A stretch of DNA of 64,000 nt from Escherichia coli (GTDB lineage: Bacteria; Pseudomonadota; Gammaproteobacteria; Enterobacterales; Enterobacteriaceae): the NCBI RefSeq assembly GCF_048403405.1, contig NZ_CP183129.1. One strand, given 5' to 3'. The position numbers and the translations under genes are program-made. The notes under the pieces are model-generated. The model was given only the letters and a program-made list of their open reading frames with translations. It did no database searches and was not told the origin of the DNA. The first letter of the stretch is position 1; every line of letters begins with the position of its first letter. Positions 15,796 to 23,311 of the stretch are shown here, one piece after another.

Positions 15796-16695
15796 TTAAC
15801 GCAATAATGGACAATCTGGTGGTAATCGACAACGCAACGCCGCCGGAAGTATTTCAATATGGAAGTTTTGCCCACTCAACGGTTCGCCATCAAGATTAAA
15901 AGTGATTTCGTGTGGGGCTTGTATATCAAACCACGACGAAGCGCCTTCGATAATATTCGGGTTATCTTCGTCAGATTTTAAGGTTGATACGAGAGCTGGA
16001 AGAATTTCATCGCCGGTAAAAATGCGCAGTTGCAGCAGGCCATCGTTAATTAACGCGTTCGGGCACAATTGCTGACCGCCACCGGCCTGACGCCCGTTAC
16101 CAATACCAATGACCAGGGCGTCACCTTGCCAGTGAAAGTTTTCACCGCGGATCTCACAACGGTCCGGTTGCAGAGTATCCATGCGCATTAAGCCATGAAT
16201 GATGTAAGAGACGCCACCCAGCGCGGCTTTTAATTTTTCCGGCGTTTCTGTGGTAATACGCGTCCCAAATCCGCCTGTCGCCATATTAATAAAACAGGTT
16301 TGTTTGTTGACCTGCGCCATATCTATCGCAATGGCGTCACCGGCAATTGCCAGTTTCAGCGCCTTATCCAGTGCCTCAGGAATCCTTACACTGGTGGCAA
16401 AATCATTGGCGGTTCCTAATGGCAAAATTCCTAGCGCGGGTATGTCATCCCCCTCACACTGAATCAACGCCGTAGAAACTTCATTAATGGTGCCATCGCC
16501 ACCACCGGCAATCACCGTTGCGACGCTCAACTTCCGGGCCTCCTCTACATATCGTGCGGCATCGCCTTTCTCCCAAGTGACCCGCACATGGATCGTCATT
16601 CCTTCCTCACGCAACAGCATAATTGCTTCGCGCAATGGTAAATTGTCAGTACTTTTGCCATTAAGAATCAGTAAGCTGGCGGGAAATTCTGCCAT
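15796..16695 (-). CDS. yegS: Lipid kinase (DAGK-catalytic-domain family), 299 aa
   Basis: ORF track; GGDGT motif; matches YegS as recalled. Confidence 0.85.
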
Positions 16696-17109
16696 GATCG
16701 TATGTGCCTTTATGATTGGTCTGTAGATAGTGTAGAGCAGAAAAGAAAAGGTGGAGTCAGAACAGGATGAAAGTCGGAGGATAAAAAATCAGTTCAAGTA
16801 TGGAGGATTCGGTGGTTACCACCAGGAGCTTGCAATGGGGACAGTGAATGTTAACGGTAGCCATAGGTAAATTTCAAAAAAGAGCATATACCTAATATTC
16901 AACTAAACAGTGGCATCTTCAATATACTATTAAAAATATATTAACCCCCCCATGGGGTTACCCGGAAGGGCCTCCGTGTATGTAATTCCTACTTATGTAG
17001 GAAATGTTGTACAGAACATTTATTATAATCCTATTCAATTATAATAATCATGCCATTATTATATTTAAACACCAGAGCGTGTCGTTGGTATTTAATGGGG
17101 GAAGGTGAG

Positions 17110-17427
17110 ATGAAAAAGATAGCTGCTATATCATTAATTAGTATTTTTCTTATGTCTGGTTGTGCTGTGCATAATGATGAAACAAGTATCGGTAAATTTG
17201 GTCTTGCATATAAAAGTAATATTCAGCGTAAACTCGATAACCAATACTACACCGAAGCCGAAGCTTCTTTAGCCAGGGGCAGAATTTCTGGTGCAGAAAA
17301 TATAGTAAAAAATGATGCAGCTCATTTCTGTGTTACTCAGGGCAAAAAAATGCAGATAGTTGACCTGAAGACAGAAGGTGCAGGATTACATGGCGTCGCT
17401 CGTCTGACATTCAAATGTGGAGAGTGA
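17110..17427 (+). CDS. yegR: Small putative lipoprotein, 105 aa
   Basis: ORF 17050..17427; start placed at MKKIAAISL with lipobox LMSGC; AT-rich gene. Confidence 0.7.
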   Translation: MKKIAAISLISIFLMSGCAVHNDETSIGKFGLAYKSNIQRKLDNQYYTEAEASLARGRISGAENIVKNDAAHFCVTQGKKMQIVDLKTEGAGLHGVARLTFKCGE

Positions 17428-17584
17428 GAATATTTTTTGGTAAGCGTCAAACATGCGCGTTCTGATTGTGCGTAGCCGGAACCTGTACGAGCACGATGCC
17501 GTTAAGTGAAAGGCATCGTGCTATGAAGGGGGATTCTATCGATGTGGTCAATGGAAGACGGTGACCAGGATACGGCTTATGCAT

Positions 17585-17611
17585 AAAAAATAAGCCCGTG
17601 TAAGGGAGATT
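17585..17611. other. Phage P2 attB core-like sequence (aaaaaataagcccgtgtaagggagatt) at the cyaR 3' end, unoccupied
   Basis: 27-mer read from sequence; matches the P2 attachment core as I recall it; no prophage genes flank it here. Confidence 0.5.
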
Positions 17612-17671
17612 ACACAGGCTAAGGAGGTGGTTCCTGGTACAGCTAGCATTTTATGGGTTATGTTTTTCAGC
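17585..17671 (-). ncRNA. cyaR: CyaR (RyeE) Hfq-dependent sRNA
   Basis: Reverse complement reads GCUGAAAAACAUAACCCAUAAAAUGCUAGCUGUACCAGGAACCACCUCCUUAGCCUGUGUAAUCUCCCUUACACGGGCUUAUUUUUU, matching E. coli CyaR as recalled. Confidence 0.85.
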
Positions 17672-17755
17672 GAAACGGATGATAACCTTAATAAATGCAG
17701 CTGTATGTGATCGGTTTCTAAGAATTTTCCATCCGGGAAAAATAATCGAAATTAA

Positions 17756-19117
17756 TCACTTACCGTGGGGGTTACGCGTGGTTTCCCCGGAGAAATTACG
17801 CATCAGGAGCGCGTAATTTAGCTCAAGATCCTGCGGCACCGGGATCCACACAGTATAACCATCGCCTGGTGCGACCGGCATAGCTTCACCTTTGGCGTTT
17901 TCCATATGCTCAAGGGTAAAGTTAATGTTGCCTTGCGGCGTCATCAGCTCAAGGCTGTCGCCAACGGAGAATTTATTTTTCACCGCTACCGCCGCGAGGT
18001 CGCCCTTGCGCTCACCGGTAAACTCACCAACAAACTGCTGGCGGTTAGAAACTGAATAACCGTATTCGTAGTTCTGATAATCGTCGTGAGTATGACGACG
18101 CAGGAAACCTTCGGTATAGCCACGATGCGCCAGACCTTCCAGAGTTTCCAGCAGGCTGGTATCGAATGGTTTGCCCGCAGCGGCATCATCGATAGCTTTA
18201 CGATAAACCTGTGCGGTGCGTGCGCAATAGTAGAAAGATTTGGTACGGCCTTCGATTTTCAGCGAATGCACGCCCATTTTGGTCAGGCGTTCTACATGGG
18301 CGATGGCGCGCAGATCTTTCGAGTTCATGATGTAAGTGCCGTGCTCATCTTCAAACGCGGTCATATACTCGCCCGGACGCTGGGCTTCTTCGATCATAAA
18401 CACTTTGTCAGTTGGTGCGCCGATACCCAGCGTCGGCTCAACATTTTGCACCGGAATCGGCTCGTACTTGTGTACGATGTTGCCAACGTCATCTTCTTTC
18501 CCTTCCTGGACGTTGTACTCCCAGCGGCAGGCGTTGGTGCAGGTGCCCTGGTTCGGGTCGCGCTTGTTGATATAGCCAGAGAGCAGGCAGCGACCGGAGT
18601 AGGCCATGCACAGCGCGCCGTGAACGAAGATCTCGATCTCCATATCCGGCACCTGATTACGAATCTCTTCAATCTCTTCCAGCGACAGCTCGCGAGAGAG
18701 GATCACGCGGGTCAGTCCCATTTGCTGCCAGAATTTCACCGTCGCCCAGTTCACGGCGTTAGCCTGTACCGAGAGATGGATCGGCATTTCAGGGAAGTGC
18801 TCGCGCACCAGCATAATCAGCCCTGGATCGGACATAATCAGCGCATCCGGCCCCATTTCCACCACCGGTTTCAGGTCACGGATAAAGGTTTTCAGCTTGG
18901 CGTTGTGCGGTGCAATGTTGACCACGACATAAAACTTTTTCCCCAGCGCATGGGCTTCATTAATGCCGAGCTGAAGATTTTCGTGGTTGAATTCGTTGTT
19001 GCGCACACGCAGGGAGTAACGTGGCTGGCCCGCATAAACAGCATCTGCGCCATAAGCGAAAGCGTAACGCATATTTTTCAGCGTTCCCGCCGGGGAAAGG
19101 AGTTCCGGTTTAAACAT
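17756..19117 (-). CDS. yegQ: Peptidase U32-family protein (tRNA uridine hydroxylase TrhP family), 453 aa
   Basis: ORF track; matches YegQ as recalled. Confidence 0.85.
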   Translation of the reverse strand: MFKPELLSPAGTLKNMRYAFAYGADAVYAGQPRYSLRVRNNEFNHENLQLGINEAHALGKKFYVVVNIAPHNAKLKTFIRDLKPVVEMGPDALIMSDPGLIMLVREHFPEMPIHLSVQANAVNWATVKFWQQMGLTRVILSRELSLEEIEEIRNQVPDMEIEIFVHGALCMAYSGRCLLSGYINKRDPNQGTCTNACRWEYNVQEGKEDDVGNIVHKYEPIPVQNVEPTLGIGAPTDKVFMIEEAQRPGEYMTAFEDEHGTYIMNSKDLRAIAHVERLTKMGVHSLKIEGRTKSFYYCARTAQVYRKAIDDAAAGKPFDTSLLETLEGLAHRGYTEGFLRRHTHDDYQNYEYGYSVSNRQQFVGEFTGERKGDLAAVAVKNKFSVGDSLELMTPQGNINFTLEHMENAKGEAMPVAPGDGYTVWIPVPQDLELNYALLMRNFSGETTRNPHGK

Positions 19118-19264
19118 AATTCTCTCGTTCTGATGACAGGTCAGATCCGCTTCACCTGATGAAGCGGCCAGGGGAGTGCCCCCACTTTAAGGGCGGGCAT
19201 TGTAGCGCTGTAGGGGGGAGCTGGTAAAGCGCCAGACGCCAACAACACGCGCCCGGCATCGTAA

Positions 19265-19597
19265 TTACGTATTGTCTTTCACCGTCTGGCTTGTGCCATT
19301 GGCTTTAACGGAGGCAATTCCGGTTTCACGAGATTGCGCGGTGGCGTACATCTGGCTGGAGCCGATAATTTGATGATTGGCGGCTTTCAGATTGAAATAG
19401 AATTTGCCGTTGCTTGCCGTTTTTTTCTCATAGCGTTCTTCTTGCGGGCTGTTGCTACGCACCGACGCGATACCCTTTTCCGCAGAGGCTTTTGAGGTAT
19501 ACAGCTCGCTGGTGAGGATAGTCTCACCATTGCCCGCTTTTAGCACAAACCGGAACTGATTATCACTGCTCTTACTGAGTTCAAACCAACCAGCCAT
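19265..19597 (-). CDS. yegP: UPF0339/DUF1508 tandem-repeat protein, 110 aa
   Basis: ORF 19265..19636; start placed at MAGWFELSK; internal duplication visible (…FVLKAGNGETI… / …FNLKAANHQII…). Confidence 0.75.
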   Translation of the reverse strand: MAGWFELSKSSDNQFRFVLKAGNGETILTSELYTSKASAEKGIASVRSNSPQEERYEKKTASNGKFYFNLKAANHQIIGSSQMYATAQSRETGIASVKANGTSQTVKDNT

Positions 19598-19776
19598 AAT
19601 GACTCCTTGATTGAAATTGCGTATCGAAAACAGCATCTAAAGGTACTGTTTGCCAATTAAAGTATGAGCGATTTTCTGGTGCCTGCCAGGGCGGAGAGAT
19701 CATGTCAGTTTGCTGACCATGCGTGGGATAATGTTGCCGGATCTGGTCTGAAGGCCATCTCCGGCAGGTAAAAATG

Positions 19777-20499
19777 TTAAACGATGCGGCAGGCGTCGGC
19801 TTCCCAGCGGTAACCGACGCCGTAAACGGCACGGATAAAGGACTGTTCGGCGTCGAGAGATTCCAGCTTGCGACGCAGGTTTTTAATGTGGCTGTCGATG
19901 GTGCGGTCGGTTACTACGCGGTAGTCGTCATAAAGATGATTGAGCAATTGCTCGCGGGAGAACACTTTTCCTGGTTCATGAGAGAGCGTTTTCAGCAGAC
20001 GAAATTCCGCAGGCGTCAGGTCAAGCATTTTTCCGCGCCATGAAGCCTGAAAACGACCTTCGTCGATAATCAACGGGCTTTCAGCATCCTGTTGCTGCAA
20101 CTCACGCTGCGGTTTGCAACGGCGCAAAATGGTTTTGACGCGCGCTACCACTTCCCGTGGGCTGTACGGCTTGCAGATATAATCATCTGCGCCAATTTCC
20201 AGCCCCAGCAGGCGGTCGATCTCTTCGATTTTTGCTGTCACCATCACGATCGGAATGTCAGAAAAACGACGAATTTCCCGACACAGCGTCAGGCCATCGG
20301 TGCCAGGGAGCATCAGATCCAGCAGGATCAGATCCGGTGGTGTCTGGCGCACATACGGCAGTACCTGATCGCCGTGGCTAATCAACGTTGGCGCATAGCT
20401 CGCAGCACGCAGATAATCAATGAGTAACTGCCCCAGCTTCGGTTCATCTTCCACGATCAAAATACGCGGTGTGTTTTCGTCGATTGGTAACTCGGTCAT
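19777..20499 (-). CDS. baeR: OmpR-family response regulator BaeR, 240 aa
   Basis: ORF track; receiver domain plus winged-helix; operon context. Confidence 0.9.
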
Positions 20500-21899
20500 A
20501 CTTCTCTCTGTAAATCCCGTTCCAGCGGTAACTCTACTGTAATGCTTACCCCGCCAAAAGGCGAATGGGCAGCAATAATGCGGCCATTATGTGCTTCAAC
20601 AATGTTCAGGCAAATCGCCAGCCCCAGCCCGGAACCGCCGCTGGCACGGTTGCGGGAGCCTTCGGTGCGATAAAAACGTTCAAACAATTTTTGTAGTTGA
20701 TCGTCACTGACACCCGGCGCACTGTCGGCAAAGGTCAGGCGCACCGTTTTGTCGTGCTGCCCGGCAGAGATTTTCAGGCTGCCGCCGCTGTCAGTGTAGC
20801 GCAGGCTGTTTTCAAGTAAGTTATTGAATAACTGCATTAAACGGTCGCGATCGCCAAATACAGTAATACTGTCTGGCAGGGAAAATTGCAGTTTCAGGCC
20901 ACGGCTGGCGAATCGTTCGCGAAATGCGCCGCCCGCCACTTCCAGCAGTGGGATCAAATCTACCGGTGCTTTTTGATAGGCGAGAGCGCCTTCATCAGAC
21001 ATCGACAACTGATGAAGATCGTCAACCAGTTTGGTCAGTGTACCGACCTCCGCCTGTAAAGACGCCACCGTCTCCGGCGTGAATTTACGCACGCCATCCT
21101 GAATGGCTTCCAGTTCACCGCGCAGCACCGCTAATGGCGTACGCAGTTCGTGAGAAATATCGGCCATAAAATCGCGCCGCATTTGCTGGTTTTTCTCCAG
21201 CGTGCTGGCAAGCTGGTTGAAGTCTTGCGCCAGTTTGCCCAGTTCATCTTCACTGGTGGGCGTTACGCGGGTAGTGAAATCGCCCGCCGCCAGTTTGTGC
21301 GTGCCGTCCACCAGCCGTTTTACCGGTGCCAGCAAACCACGCGCCAGCAGAAAGGTAGCGAGTGCCGCGAGTAACGTTGCCAGAGCGACAATCAGCCAGC
21401 TGGTTTGCCGCTGTTGTTTATCGAAATTGATATCAGTATTGCGGGTCAGTCGCTCAACAGGGGAGGCAATCACCGCGCCCACTTCCGCACCGTTGACCAG
21501 AATGGGTCGCCGTGTACCGTCAGGTGGAATCGGCGCTCGCGGACCAACCAGCACTTTGTTGTTTTGATCAACCACCCAGAACTGGGTACGCCAGCCGTGC
21601 GGTGGCATACCCGGGCCGGGTTTATCTTCCGAATTATCGTGTTCAAATGAACGCAGGATCTGAAAGACAAAGCGATCATTGTTGCGCAGGAAGCGCCAGT
21701 TGCCATGCTGCGCATACTGCTCGCCAAGCGCATCACTTAACAGTTGTAATCGCTGTTCATTACCATGCTTGATGTAATCAATAAAGCCACGCTCAAAACT
21801 GATACGCACCGCCCAGTGCATACTGATCAGCAAGACAATGCAGGTGGCGAAAATCGCCAGAAACAGTTTGCCGGTAATACCGGGTCGCCAGAACTTCAT
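20496..21899 (-). CDS. baeS: Envelope-stress sensor histidine kinase BaeS, 467 aa
   Basis: ORF track; HAMP/HisKA/HATPase motifs (HELRTPL); overlaps baeR start. Confidence 0.9.
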
Positions 21900-23311
21900 T
21901 GCGCGCTCCTTTTTCGCCGCGAAATAGCTACATTTTGATGCGTATCGTTCGGCACTCTGGCAAAGATGAACGCCGGAAGGGCAATGATAAACGCCATGCT
22001 AAGCCAGGTGTACATAAAGACGGTTTGTGTGGTGCCGCTGTCGACGCTGACATGCTGCGAACCAAAAAGTCCCAGCAACAGCCCGGCGATGGTGACGCCG
22101 ATACTCATCGACAATTGCATAATCATCGACAGCAGGCTGTTTCCGCTGCTCGCCAGATTGTCCGGGAGATCTTTCAGCGTCAGGGTGTTCATGGAGGAGA
22201 AACGCGTCGAGTTGACCATCCCTTGTAAAAACAGGACGAACGGCAAAACGTAGTACCAGCCCAGCAGGGCGGTAGTCATAAACAACAGGGTGACCAGCGA
22301 CAGACCCAGCGTGGTCGCCACCAGTACCCGACGATAACCAAAGCGATTCACCACCTGTACCACAATTCGCTTCATCCCCATGCTGCCGAGCACCATCGGG
22401 ATCATCATCAGTCCGGCATGAAACGGTGAGAAGCCAAGGCCAATTTGCAGGAAAACCGGCGTCATAAAGGGCAACATGCCGCTACCGATACGTCCGGCAA
22501 AACTCCCCGCCAGGCCCAGCGAAAAGGTACGAGTACGGAACAGTTTCAGACTGAAAAGAGCGCGGTTGTTATTTCTGGCGTGCAGCAGATAAAGCACCAG
22601 TGCTACCACGCCAACTGCGACCAGGCCAGCAATCGCCAGCGGCGATAAACCTGTACCTTTACTGCCGTCCAGCGCCAGGGTTAATACCGCCATGCCAACC
22701 GCCAGCAATAAAAAGCCGAAGAGATCAAAGCGCCGCGTCTGCATGGTGTAGTTCGGCATTAACATCAGTGTGGCGATCGCACCGATAATCCCCACCGGAA
22801 TGTTGATCAAAAAGATCCAGTGCCAGGAGGCGTACTCCACCAGCAGGCCGCCGAGCGCCGGACCGAGCAGCGGCCCGACCTGACCGGGTAACGTGACAAA
22901 GGTCATCGCCGCCATATATTGCTCGCGCGGTACGATTTTCATCACCGTCAACCTGCCGACCGGCACCATCATCGCACCGCCAACGCCCTGTAACGCGCGT
23001 GCCAGCAACAGTTCGTTCAGCGTGCCGGAAAGCGCGCAAAACAGTGAACCGAGAGTAAACAGCACGATGGCGGTAAAGAAAATATTGCGCACGCCGACTT
23101 TGTCCGCCAGCCAGCCGCTGGCAGGCAACATCACCGCCACGGTCAGCACATAAGAGACAATGACCATGTGCATATGCAACGGACTTTCCCCGAGGCTTTG
23201 CGCCATTGAGGGAAGGGCGGTGTTAACGATGGTGGTGTCCAGCGACTGCATAAAGAAGCCGAAAGCCACAATCCACAATTGCCAGCGGGTGCTGTCGGGA
23301 AGATCTGTCAT
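21896..23311 (-). CDS. mdtD: MFS efflux transporter MdtD, 471 aa
   Basis: ORF track; polytopic MFS protein; operon context. Confidence 0.85.

Follow-up and report, generated by a model that had tools for sequence, protein, structure and literature searches.

The genes that follow the mdtABCD-baeSR operon raise two questions: whether yegP is co-transcribed with this envelope-stress operon, and whether yegP and the neighbouring yegQ form a pair. A sequence-only reading of a window of 64,000 nucleotides from Escherichia coli (assembly GCF_048403405.1, contig NZ_CP183129.1) had presented the two genes as a pair and had found the transcription of yegP unclear. Our analysis of this window indicates that the minus strand very probably carries four separate units in tandem (i.e., mdtABCD-baeSR, yegP, trhP and cyaR), with the adjacency of yegP and trhP (yegQ) reflecting synteny.

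Gene identities at the locus

Both yegP and yegQ are real, conserved genes, and their identities, order and strand are as first described, each ORF lying at the minus-strand positions given for it. According to the ORF list and the RefSeq annotation, the order is baeR, yegP, yegQ and the CyaR sRNA (Table 1). RefSeq names the genes baeR, yegP, trhP and yegR and places mdtD-baeS-baeR directly upstream on the same strand, which agrees with the earlier placement of yegP after the baeSR-mdt operon. Several complete E. coli genomes match the stretch at 100% identity, and most E. coli genomes share 95-99% identity with the window strain across yegP-trhP. Homologue searches found 3772 sequences for YegP and at least 8000 for TrhP. 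CyaR was the sole match when Rfam covariance models were run over 16500..20500 at E<=1 (RF00112, 100.7 bits, E=3.9e-20; terminator at 17620..17593), with none in the two intergenic regions.

Table 1. Positions of genes, RNA and candidate regulatory features in the window, in the direction of transcription.
Feature	Positions	Strand	Description and basis
baeR	19777..20499	(-)	Last gene of mdtABCD-baeSR; ORF, RefSeq annotation
Hairpin A	19735..19766	(-)	Just after the baeR stop; UGCCGGA...UCCGGCA, then AACAUUAUCC, no U-tract
Hairpin B	19701..19721	(-)	CAUGGUCAG-CAAA-CUGACAUG, tail AUCUCUCC
yegP promoter	19661..19689	(-)	-35 CTGGCA (19689..19684), 17-nt spacer, -10 CATACT (19666..19661)
yegP	19265..19597	(-)	110-aa tandem-DUF1508 (UPF0339) protein; ORF, Pfam, PDB 2K8E, AF2 model
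yegP terminator-like hairpin	19223..19257	(-)	GCCGGGCGC-GUGUUGUUG-GCGUCUGGC, tail GCUUUACC
trhP promoter-like site	19199..19228	(-)	TTTACC-18-TACAAT; promoter scan
Leader hairpin 1	19171..19183	(-)	GGGGG-CAC-UCCCC; fold
Leader hairpin 2	19147..19167	(-)	CCGCUUCA-UCAGG-UGAAGCGG; fold
Anticodon-arm-like hairpin	19129..19145	(-)	UCUGA-CCUGUCA-UCAGA; 5-bp stem, 7-nt loop
Shine-Dalgarno and spacer to trhP ATG	19118..19126	(-)	GAGAG (19126..19122); GAGA invariant in alignments
trhP (yegQ)	17756..19117	(-)	453 aa; ORF, RefSeq, Pfam, NCBIfam, key residues
CyaR (RyeE) sRNA and terminator	17588..17673	(-)	Directly 3' of trhP; Rfam RF00112

The assignment of yegQ to the U32 family was correct, as shown by Pfam matches to Peptidase_U32 (PF01136, E=5.2e-89) and to the U32 C-terminal domain (PF16325, E=2.7e-22), but it understated what the gene is. 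YegQ passed the TrhP equivalog model of NCBIfam (NF011996) with 876.6 bits against a cut-off of 534, and fell below the cut-offs of the models for the TrhP paralogues UbiU (190 bits, cut-off 440) and UbiV (52 bits, cut-off 275); RlhA is a further paralogue. E162, C170 and C177, which are essential for ho5U34 formation in TrhP (PMC6599085), are all present. Judged by these matches, the yegQ of the window is TrhP itself, an already-known gene: it shares with K-12 TrhP the U32 and U32_C domains, the equivalog pass, the three residues and the genomic place between yegP and cyaR, and there is no difference at the protein level. TrhP of E. coli K-12 is a prephenate-dependent tRNA U34 hydroxylase, and ho5U34 formation with prephenate is established for this near-identical protein; the same study had no evidence in hand that TrhP itself catalyses the hydroxylation directly (Sakai et al. 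2019, PMC6599085). TrhP carries a [4Fe-4S] cluster (bioRxiv 10.1101/2021.04.01.438105). The trhP product of the window would be expected to be a [4Fe-4S] enzyme of the U32 family that makes ho5U34 in six tRNAs from prephenate.

The internal duplication described for YegP is present, with two stretches matching DUF1508 (PF07411, 153 bits, E=1.7e-45) and halves that are 45% identical. The start MAGWFEL gives 110 aa, and a longer ORF of 123 aa is also open from 19636. YegP is the same protein as the E. coli structure PDB 2K8E (E=2.3e-66), a tandem beta-beta-beta-alpha pseudo-dimer, and its AF2 model (pLDDT 91.8) likewise has two beta-beta-beta-alpha units, matching the fold of the solved family members. 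Other UPF0339 (DUF1508) relatives in the PDB are 2K49 from Shewanella and the single-domain 6Q2Z, 3BID and 2K7I. Elsewhere, DUF1508 homologues lie downstream of capK-capS immune regulators, and some are fused to bacterial ubiquitin-like proteins; neither arrangement occurs at this locus, and the PADLOC defence models matched neither YegP nor TrhP. We also noticed that YegP weakly and partially matches the C-terminal part of the NCBIfam TrpRS profile (26 bits, no stretch passing alone). YegP is an already-known, uncharacterised stress protein. With low confidence, we would guess that it serves the stationary-phase response to stress as a small adaptor or binding protein built as a pseudo-dimer. 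As first posed, then, the finding adds nothing new, both genes being catalogued.

Transcription of yegP

The spacer between baeR and yegP holds a promoter in which the -10 element, CATACT, and the -35-like T.G.A are the same in all 14 sequences aligned (Escherichia, Citrobacter, Kluyvera, Lelliottia and one Raoultella MAG); the remainder of the spacer cannot be aligned. The identical CTGGCA-17-CATACT was reported between baeR and yegP in a genomic SELEX study of RpoD, which gives this entry only and no site for the yegP>yegQ spacer (PMC3946193). With an RpoS-dependence ratio of 185, listed for yegP alone, the gene ranks within the top 100 RpoS-dependent genes; the main text of that paper makes no mention of baeS, mdtA, mdtD or yegQ, and baeR appears in it solely as a listed regulator of ycaC (PMC2907692). 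Induction of yegP coincides with that of osmY, dps, otsB and elaB, which are classical sigma-S genes, and in this, as in its strong RpoS dependence, yegP resembles the general stress genes (osmY, dps, otsBA, elaB). In comparison with sigma-S-dependent genes, the window promoter has T at -13 (GCTCATACT), where most orthologous yegP promoters have C (CCCATACT). An own promoter and sigma-S-linked expression of yegP are already in the literature. We suggest that yegP would be a monocistronic general-stress gene driven by CTGGCA-17-CATACT (19689..19661), a promoter bound by the RpoD holoenzyme in vitro and probably sigma-S-dependent in stationary phase; the transcription start sites and 3' ends on which such boundaries rest are predictions, with starts at about 19654-19658 for yegP and about 19192-19194 for trhP, and ends near 19700 or 19735 for baeR and at about 19225 for yegP.

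A strong terminator after baeR, together with an independent yegP promoter, had been named as evidence that would speak against co-transcription. The promoter is there, conserved and previously reported; a canonical terminator is not, since the terminator scan called none in E. coli across 19598..19776, which contains only two hairpins without U-tracts. Hairpin A (-18.1 kcal/mol, z = -5.15), which the scan did not call, is common to E. albertii (GCCGGA..TCCGGC) and missing from the other genera aligned. Hairpin B is weak (-7.1 kcal/mol, z = -0.88) and has no U-tract, and it aligns with the strong post-baeR hairpins of Lelliottia, Kluyvera and Citrobacter. In Lelliottia a strong hairpin with a U-run lies directly 3' of baeR; that of Kluyvera has a pyrimidine-rich tail with <=3 U in a row; and that of Citrobacter lacks a U-run. 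From its position in these alignments, hairpin B appears to be a degenerate counterpart of the terminators that follow baeR in other genera.

The weakness of hairpin B, the shared strand, the gap of 179 bp and the lack of a canonical intrinsic terminator in E. coli would also fit yegP as the promoter-distal gene of an mdtABCD-baeSR-yegP operon, expressed mainly by read-through from baeR. We regard this as unlikely. A member of the operon would have no promoter of its own, and the conserved CTGGCA-17-CATACT lies within the spacer; yegP is among the top RpoS-dependent genes while baeSR and mdt are not; related genera combine strong post-baeR hairpins with the same yegP promoter; and no report of yegP as a BaeR-regulon gene was found in the literature covered. 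The question of co-transcription with the envelope-stress operon is thereby largely answered: yegP is mainly its own sigma-S-driven unit, and minor read-through from baeR is possible because E. coli has weak hairpins only in place of a canonical terminator. In the mechanism that we propose, the baeR terminator of E. coli would have decayed to these hairpins, and read-through would not be the main source of yegP mRNA, but it may be substantial under BaeR-inducing conditions.

Adjacency of yegP and trhP

Between yegP and trhP lie a covarying hairpin and then the invariant CTTTACC...GCGCTACAAT. The hairpin, terminator-like in E. coli (-17.5 kcal/mol), is kept with differing sequences in Citrobacter, Kluyvera and Lelliottia, and is followed by a T5 run in Citrobacter. 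CTTTACC and GCGCTACAAT of the trhP promoter-like site are invariant in Enterobacteriaceae, and the TAnAAT -10 is kept in Yersinia, Pantoea, Providencia, Morganella, Pectobacterium and Photorhabdus. Three Escherichia-clade loci (L003, L004 and L005) carry extra DNA between yegP and trhP, which leaves the trhP leader undisturbed; the two extra ORFs of L004 read like a putative ParD/ParE-type toxin-antitoxin pair.

The block baeSR-trhP-yegS is conserved across Enterobacterales whether yegP is present or not. yegP occurs in the block in Escherichia, Citrobacter, Kluyvera, Lelliottia, Yersinia and Photorhabdus, while Klebsiella, Pantoea, Providencia, Morganella and Erwinia have baeR-trhP-yegS without it. 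Among 80 YegP loci of other species, 65 lack both baeR and trhP within 6 kb, and no recurrent neighbour that could give a clue to function was found outside the enterobacterial block. In three Burkholderiales contigs the order is reversed, with trhP followed by yegP.

Could YegP and TrhP nonetheless work together, with YegP, say, binding tRNA or acting as a chaperone alongside the hydroxylase? Adjacency in several Enterobacterales families, as distant as Yersiniaceae and Morganellaceae, and the reversed adjacency in Burkholderiales could hint at a functional yegP-trhP(-baeR) link, and the 26-bit TrpRS match of YegP would suggest that a tRNA enzyme can carry an appended DUF1508. We nevertheless consider such a partnership very improbable. 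An operon or pair would be expected to keep the two genes adjacent throughout with nothing regulatory inside, and what we find is a covarying hairpin and a promoter between them, yegP missing in five genera, and YegP mostly located elsewhere. The hairpin and the conserved promoter argue that yegP and trhP are not an operon, and the pair claimed earlier finds no support as a functional unit: their adjacency is synteny. It would stem from an ancient baeSR-(yegP)-trhP-yegS block of Enterobacterales from which yegP is often missing. Our re-examination settles co-transcription as far as sequence allows, and leaves the 'pair' as an accident of synteny in the baeSR-trhP-yegS block.

A conserved leader upstream of trhP

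The re-examination also exposes a strongly conserved trhP leader, which is uncatalogued and the sole new item at the locus. A conserved promoter-like site lies before trhP itself, and the predicted structured leader spans about 75 nt. Leader hairpin 2 is present, with free sequence, in all 42 distinct leader variants, and shows compensatory changes at 8/9 pairs, a value reached in 0/500 shuffles. Adjoining it is the anticodon-arm-like hairpin (consensus CUGA-CYUGNNN-UCAG), which is invariant in 13 of 14 Enterobacterales taxa and ends 2-5 nt before the GAGA in those of the taxa examined that have it (2 nt in E. coli). Its stem and loop are conserved across at least six families while the neighbouring hairpin drifts. 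Both arms of the stem are invariant, so covariation provides no proof of RNA pairing here; in the loop, conservation is asymmetric, C, Y, T and G to the left of the centre being fixed and the three right-hand bases variable. The window contains the pattern CTGACYTGNNNTCAG once, with 0.00 occurrences expected. A metagenome scan with the motif returned 120 matches, of which the 55 followed by a TrhP N-terminus were kept; the other 65 fell in tRNA genes or arose by chance, as a pattern of 17 bases would lead one to expect. TrhP homologues outside Enterobacterales, at 63% and 51% identity, have no such leader in front of them, and neither do those of Burkholderiales. A leader peptide (19-codon uORF, ATG within TACAATG) was rejected because the frame is cut to 10 codons in Citrobacter and E. 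albertii and is shifted in Lelliottia, with variation tracking stem pairing, not codons.

We noticed that the hairpin looks, from its sequence, like the anticodon arm of a tRNA substrate of TrhP. Compared with positions 27-43 of E. coli thrU tRNA-Thr(UGU) (ACUGA-CUUGUAA-UCAGU), it agrees at 12/12 invariant positions (thrU 28-35/39-42) and at 13/17 overall, the next best among 27 tRNA species reaching 9/12 invariant positions. The Enterobacteriaceae loop, CCUGUCA, has C33 and C37 in place of the U33 and purine 37 of tRNAs, and the loops of Yersinia and Morganella (CUUGAAC) and of some metagenome variants (CUUGAAA) have U33 and A37. Recognition by TGT (UGU loop) or by ThrRS was rejected as a general explanation because the UGU is not conserved, being replaced by UGA or UGC in many species.

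That both arms are invariant and do not covary is also what a DNA operator would show, palindromes being typical of operators, and TCTGA-N7-TCAGA might serve a dimeric transcription factor in place of an RNA function. We find this improbable: conservation around the palindrome centre is asymmetric, the site is only 2 nt away from the Shine-Dalgarno sequence and some 50 nt past the predicted -10, the abutting hairpin is clearly RNA given its compensatory changes, the invariant bases equal those of a tRNA anticodon arm, and no similar hairpin was found 5' of trhO, cmoA (or yecN/yecD) or rlhA in MG1655. FadR, FNR, LexA, Cra and TyrR boxes were rejected, since their consensuses gave only partial matches in the palindrome, in species-variable bases.

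Another alternative is that the leader is a generic stabilising, processing or Rho-attenuation structure, or is read by a factor other than TrhP, with a coincidental likeness to tRNA. Hairpins with a 5-bp stem and a 7-nt loop are common by chance, the C at loop positions 2 and 6 in Enterobacteriaceae departs from the U33 and purine 37 of tRNAs, and yegQ is among the genes raised >30-fold in a Rho mutant (PMC9160355). Such a structure would not need an invariant stem and loop across at least six families beside a drifting hairpin, and the exact pattern was otherwise found, in ~1.1 Mb of loci, only in thrU and at one unrelated site. We rate this alternative as possible but doubtful.

We hypothesize only that TrhP may regulate its own gene through this leader. 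Tentatively, and with reserve, we propose that the hairpin would mimic the anticodon stem-loop of tRNA-Thr(UGU) or tRNA-Ser(UGA), both substrates of TrhP, and would be stacked on the free-sequence hairpin and 2 nt from the Shine-Dalgarno sequence. Free TrhP, carrying no unmodified tRNA, would attach to this hairpin and might even hydroxylate it; bound there, the enzyme would keep ribosomes from loading and leave the C-rich leader open to Rho. The outcome would be substrate-titrated autoregulation of a tRNA-modification enzyme across Enterobacterales.

Comparable arrangements are known. At the translational operator of thrS, ThrRS binds mimics of the anticodon arm beside its own Shine-Dalgarno sequence, and the trhP hairpin likewise resembles the anticodon arm of a cognate tRNA in shape and sequence and lies beside the Shine-Dalgarno sequence. 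In contrast to thrS, trhP has a free-sequence hairpin followed by a single mimic, in which positions 28-35 and 39-42 of tRNA-Thr(UGU) are kept while 36-38 vary, and encodes a modification enzyme instead of a synthetase, for which binding is predicted only. tRNA-modifying enzymes also act on anticodon-loop-like hairpins in mRNAs, i.e., TadA on hokB and others and TGT on virF. The trhP leader is similarly an mRNA hairpin resembling the anticodon stem-loop of the enzyme's tRNA substrate; the TadA and TGT sites lie in mRNAs of other genes and are modified, whereas the trhP site is in the enzyme's own leader and its modification is hypothetical. If TrhP does read the anticodon-arm mimic, this would be a rare instance in which a tRNA-modification enzyme autoregulates by substrate mimicry, and the leader would provide a natural RNA ligand of 17 nt for TrhP, for which direct catalysis was still to be demonstrated at the time of its description.

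Gene content and the identity of yegQ and yegP

As the sequence-only reading had it, yegP and yegQ lie downstream of baeSR; mdtD, baeS, baeR, yegP and yegQ are all on the minus strand, and the pair are known genes in a known arrangement, of low interest in itself. Several complete E. coli chromosomes, where RefSeq labels baeR, yegP, trhP/yegQ and yegR, match the interval 17400..20000 at 100% identity; roughly 5400 more match it at 95-99%. Of 5425 E. coli records, some 330 cover under 80% of this query, and certain genomes have up to four matching places, so some part of it is variable or repeated among strains. The CyaR gene directly follows trhP, and yegR comes next on the opposite strand.

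Coordinates of the features discussed, with supporting evidence
Feature	Coordinates	Strand	Evidence
mdtD	23311..21896	-	ORF listing
baeS	21899..20496	-	ORF listing
baeR	20499..19777	-	ORF listing, RefSeq
Hairpin A	19766..19735	-	Folding: -18.1 kcal/mol, z = -5.15, strong; followed by AACAUUAUCC, no U-tract
Hairpin B	19721..19701	-	Folding: -7.1 kcal/mol, weak; tail AUCUCUCC
yegP promoter -35, CTGGCA	19689..19684	-	Alignment; same hexamer in RpoD SELEX
yegP promoter -10, CATACT	19666..19661	-	Alignment; same hexamer in RpoD SELEX
yegP (110 aa)	19597..19265	-	ORF listing, RefSeq "YegP family protein", Pfam
yegP 3' hairpin, GCCGGGCGC...GCGUCUGGC	19257..19231	-	Folding, alignment
trhP promoter-like site, CTTTACC-N17/18-GCGCTACAAT	19228..19199	-	Invariant in alignment; window form TTTACC-18-TACAAT
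Spacer portion with promoter-like site and leader	19118..19228	-	Conservation above flanking genes
Anticodon-arm-like hairpin, UCUGA-CCUGUCA-UCAGA	19145..19129	-	E. coli window
trhP/yegQ (453 aa)	19117..17756	-	ORF listing, RefSeq, Pfam, NCBIfam equivalog
CyaR (RyeE) sRNA with own terminator	17588..17673	-	Rfam, 100.7 bits

The yegQ product carries Pfam Peptidase_U32 and U32_C, in agreement with its earlier placement in the U32 family; mere kinship with RNA hydroxylases understated the case, as the gene is trhP itself. Its product reaches 876.6 bits with the NCBIfam equivalog model of the prephenate-dependent tRNA uridine(34) hydroxylase (cut-off 534), the UbiU and UbiV profiles score far under their cut-offs, and E162, C170 and C177, which are essential in TrhP (Sakai et al., PMC6599085), are all retained. 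TrhP forms ho5U34, the first step to cmo5U/mcmo5U, in tRNAs Ala1, Leu3, Pro3, Ser1, Thr4 and Val1; the reaction requires prephenate, and the O2-dependent TrhO is redundant with TrhP (PMC6599085). A chemoproteomics preprint reports about one [4Fe-4S] cluster per monomer.

YegP is internally duplicated, as previously noted, with two DUF1508 stretches (Pfam) whose halves are 45% identical. Its structure has been determined (PDB 2K8E), and an AlphaFold model shows two beta-beta-beta-alpha units (pLDDT 91.8). The literature describes YegP as stress-induced, with homologues downstream of capK-capS regulators or fused to bacterial ubiquitin-like proteins; the literature searched yielded no functional assignment. 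Its first DUF1508 repeat (residues 9-56) weakly matches positions 358-405, in the C-terminal part of the tryptophan-tRNA ligase family profile PRK12284 (NCBIfam; 26 bits, E=2.9e-6; no single stretch passes alone), a hint that DUF1508 may be appended to a tRNA enzyme. Syntenic YegPs share 54% (Yersinia) and 46% (Photorhabdus) identity with the E. coli protein, less than the 65-83% of non-syntenic Pseudomonas and betaproteobacterial copies in unrelated contexts (alignment A4 of YegP proteins; loci L011-L081, L084, L103), and phage family phrog_1422 matches YegP over its full length (E=1.9e-64); together, these comparisons suggest horizontal spread or gene replacement.

Transcription of yegP and its separation from trhP

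Whether yegP is co-transcribed with the baeSR-mdt operon had been left to the presence of a strong terminator and an independent promoter in the 179-bp baeR-yegP spacer (19598..19776). No strong terminator is present in E. coli: a consensus scan of the spacer found no intrinsic terminator, and folding gave only hairpins A and B. Hairpin A, right after the baeR stop codon, is common to E. albertii and not to the other aligned genera, and may serve in stabilisation, processing or a Rho-related role. In a 14-locus alignment (Escherichia, Citrobacter, Kluyvera, Lelliottia and a Raoultella MAG), the other genera carry strong hairpins directly 3' of baeR, at the position of hairpin B: CCCGCC-UGCU-GGCGGG followed by UUUUU in Lelliottia, one with a pyrimidine-rich tail in Kluyvera, and a strong one without a U-run in Citrobacter. 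The E. coli terminator therefore appears to be a decayed version, which makes some read-through from baeR into yegP plausible.

An independent yegP promoter does exist. The only invariant elements of the alignment are CATACT, a -35-like T.G.A 17 nt upstream and the SD CAAGGAGT, and Shimada et al. gave CTGGCA-17-CATACT for this spacer from RpoD genomic SELEX (PMC3946193). In Dong and Schellhorn's list of the 100 stationary-phase genes with the strongest RpoS dependence, yegP appears by itself (ratio 185); baeS, mdtA, mdtD and yegQ are absent from their main text, where baeR appears solely as a ycaC regulator (PMC2907692). Two further papers group yegP with osmY, dps, otsB and elaB. We conclude that yegP is in essence a separate, sigma-S-linked unit with predicted transcript ends, and the co-transcription question is largely settled for independent transcription.

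Nor are yegP and yegQ likely to form a functional pair. Their 147-bp spacer contains a hairpin and a promoter-like site; the hairpin is retained in other genera with different sequences, followed by a T-run in Citrobacter, and three Escherichia-clade loci (L003, L004, L005) have extra DNA between it and the trhP -10 GCGCTACAAT. The insert of Escherichia whittamii (L004, 6370..7140) replaces the -35 region and leaves GCGCTACAAT and the leader untouched; its two ORFs read like a ParD/ParE-type toxin-antitoxin pair. Among 80 species loci anchored on YegP, baeR occurs in 15, all enterobacterial, 12 of which also show trhP, and 62 have neither gene and no other recurrent neighbour. In three Burkholderiales contigs (L055 4180..6330, L060 692..3497, L068), probably one lineage, the order seen in enterobacteria is inverted: a YegP homologue follows a same-strand TrhP homologue (55-59% identity), an adjacency compatible with chance by rough estimate. 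Anchoring on TrhP, we found baeS-baeR-trhP-yegS kept and yegP missing in Klebsiella, Pantoea, Providencia, Morganella and Erwinia, a DUF1508 gene 3' of baeR in Yersinia and Photorhabdus, and the baeSR linkage to trhP lost in Pectobacterium. Both anchors thus point to baeSR-trhP-yegS as the stable unit and yegP as an optional insert. In Klebsiella, the 318-bp baeR-trhP spacer, which takes the place of yegP, is filled by GC-rich palindromic, REP-like sequence (L082, 2683..2900).

A conserved leader upstream of trhP

From GCGCTACAAT to the ATG, the sequence is nearly invariant in Enterobacteriaceae, above the flanking coding DNA. In a wider comparison that took in Yersinia, Pantoea, Providencia, Morganella, Pectobacterium, Limnobaculum and Photorhabdus, conservation extends to a TAnAAT -10, a hairpin that varies freely in sequence and, 0-2 nt on, the invariant string CUGA-C-Y-U-G-N-N-N-UCAG, with the SD GAGA (GGAA in Morganella) 2-5 nt after it and then AUG. 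Scanning metagenomes for the motif together with the SD gave 120 loci; in 55 a TrhP N-terminus comes next, which brought the total to 42 distinct variants of one architecture. The leader is absent at TrhP homologues outside Enterobacterales, no Rfam family matches it, and the literature searched held no paper on trhP regulation. An Erwinia-type contig (L104, 2430..2500) retains the upstream hairpin and TCAGA-NN-GAGA, but its second hairpin is missing the 5' arm and the loop, in what looks like a natural loss variant.

The upstream hairpin shows compensatory changes at 8 of 9 pairs, a value reached by 0 of 500 shuffles, indicating that the element functions at the RNA level. Because the second stem is invariant, its pairing is deduced solely from self-complementarity, and the palindrome might alternatively be a DNA operator. 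The leader is a real, uncatalogued and conserved feature, and we think it quite probable that it acts as a cis-regulatory RNA.

Anticodon-arm resemblance and possible regulation

With its 5-bp stem and 7-nt loop, the second hairpin has anticodon-arm dimensions. Positions 27-43 of E. coli thrU, tRNA-Thr(UGU) (ACUGA-CUUGUAA-UCAGU), are identical to it at 12 of 12 leader-invariant positions and 13 of 17 overall; the runner-up among 27 E. coli tRNA species (from MG1655) reaches 9 of 12. In the "anticodon" position the leaders show only UGU, UGA or UGC, matching the anticodons of three TrhP substrates, Thr4, Ser1 and Ala1, and a variant loop, CUUGAAA, is identical to that of tRNA-Ser(UGA). The 64-kb window holds a single instance of the pattern (0.00 expected), and ~1.1 Mb of fetched loci yielded it, besides leaders, only at thrU and one unrelated Pseudomonas site; by rough estimate, a given 75-nt leader would match any of six substrate arms by chance at ~2e-4. 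No comparable hairpin was found 5' of trhO, cmoA or rlhA. Two metagenomic loci from unknown bacteria (L203, L204) hold tRNA-Ser(UGA)-like genes with the arm CUGA-CUUGAAA-UCAG, as in some trhP leaders; the motif thus exists as a true anticodon-arm sequence in at least two families of tRNA.

These resemblances raise the tentative, rather doubtful idea that TrhP would recognise the hairpin as a substrate mimic and block the adjoining SD and expose the C-rich leader to Rho. Against such mimicry, Enterobacteriaceae leaders carry C33 and C37 in place of the U33 and the purine found in tRNAs, TrhP prefers Leu3 and Pro3 (Sakai et al., PMC6599085), and the invariant stem offers no covariation proof. 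Another protein might read the leader instead. Together with thiC and sbp, yegQ is listed as more than 30-fold up in a Rho N340S mutant and is described as having an elemental pause sequence (PMC9160355), as would fit Rho-dependent attenuation within the leader or beyond it; the accompanying microarray values are mixed. The leader might otherwise be a generic stability or attenuation structure.

In P. aeruginosa lacking trhP and trhO, the RND efflux operon mexCD-oprJ is induced in an envelope-stress response (PMC12288880). In Enterobacterales, a stable linkage joins trhP to the RND/envelope-stress operon mdtABCD-baeSR (synteny, L082-L104), possibly a functional echo. The gene pair itself is already known; the trhP leader offers a testable and moderately surprising reading.
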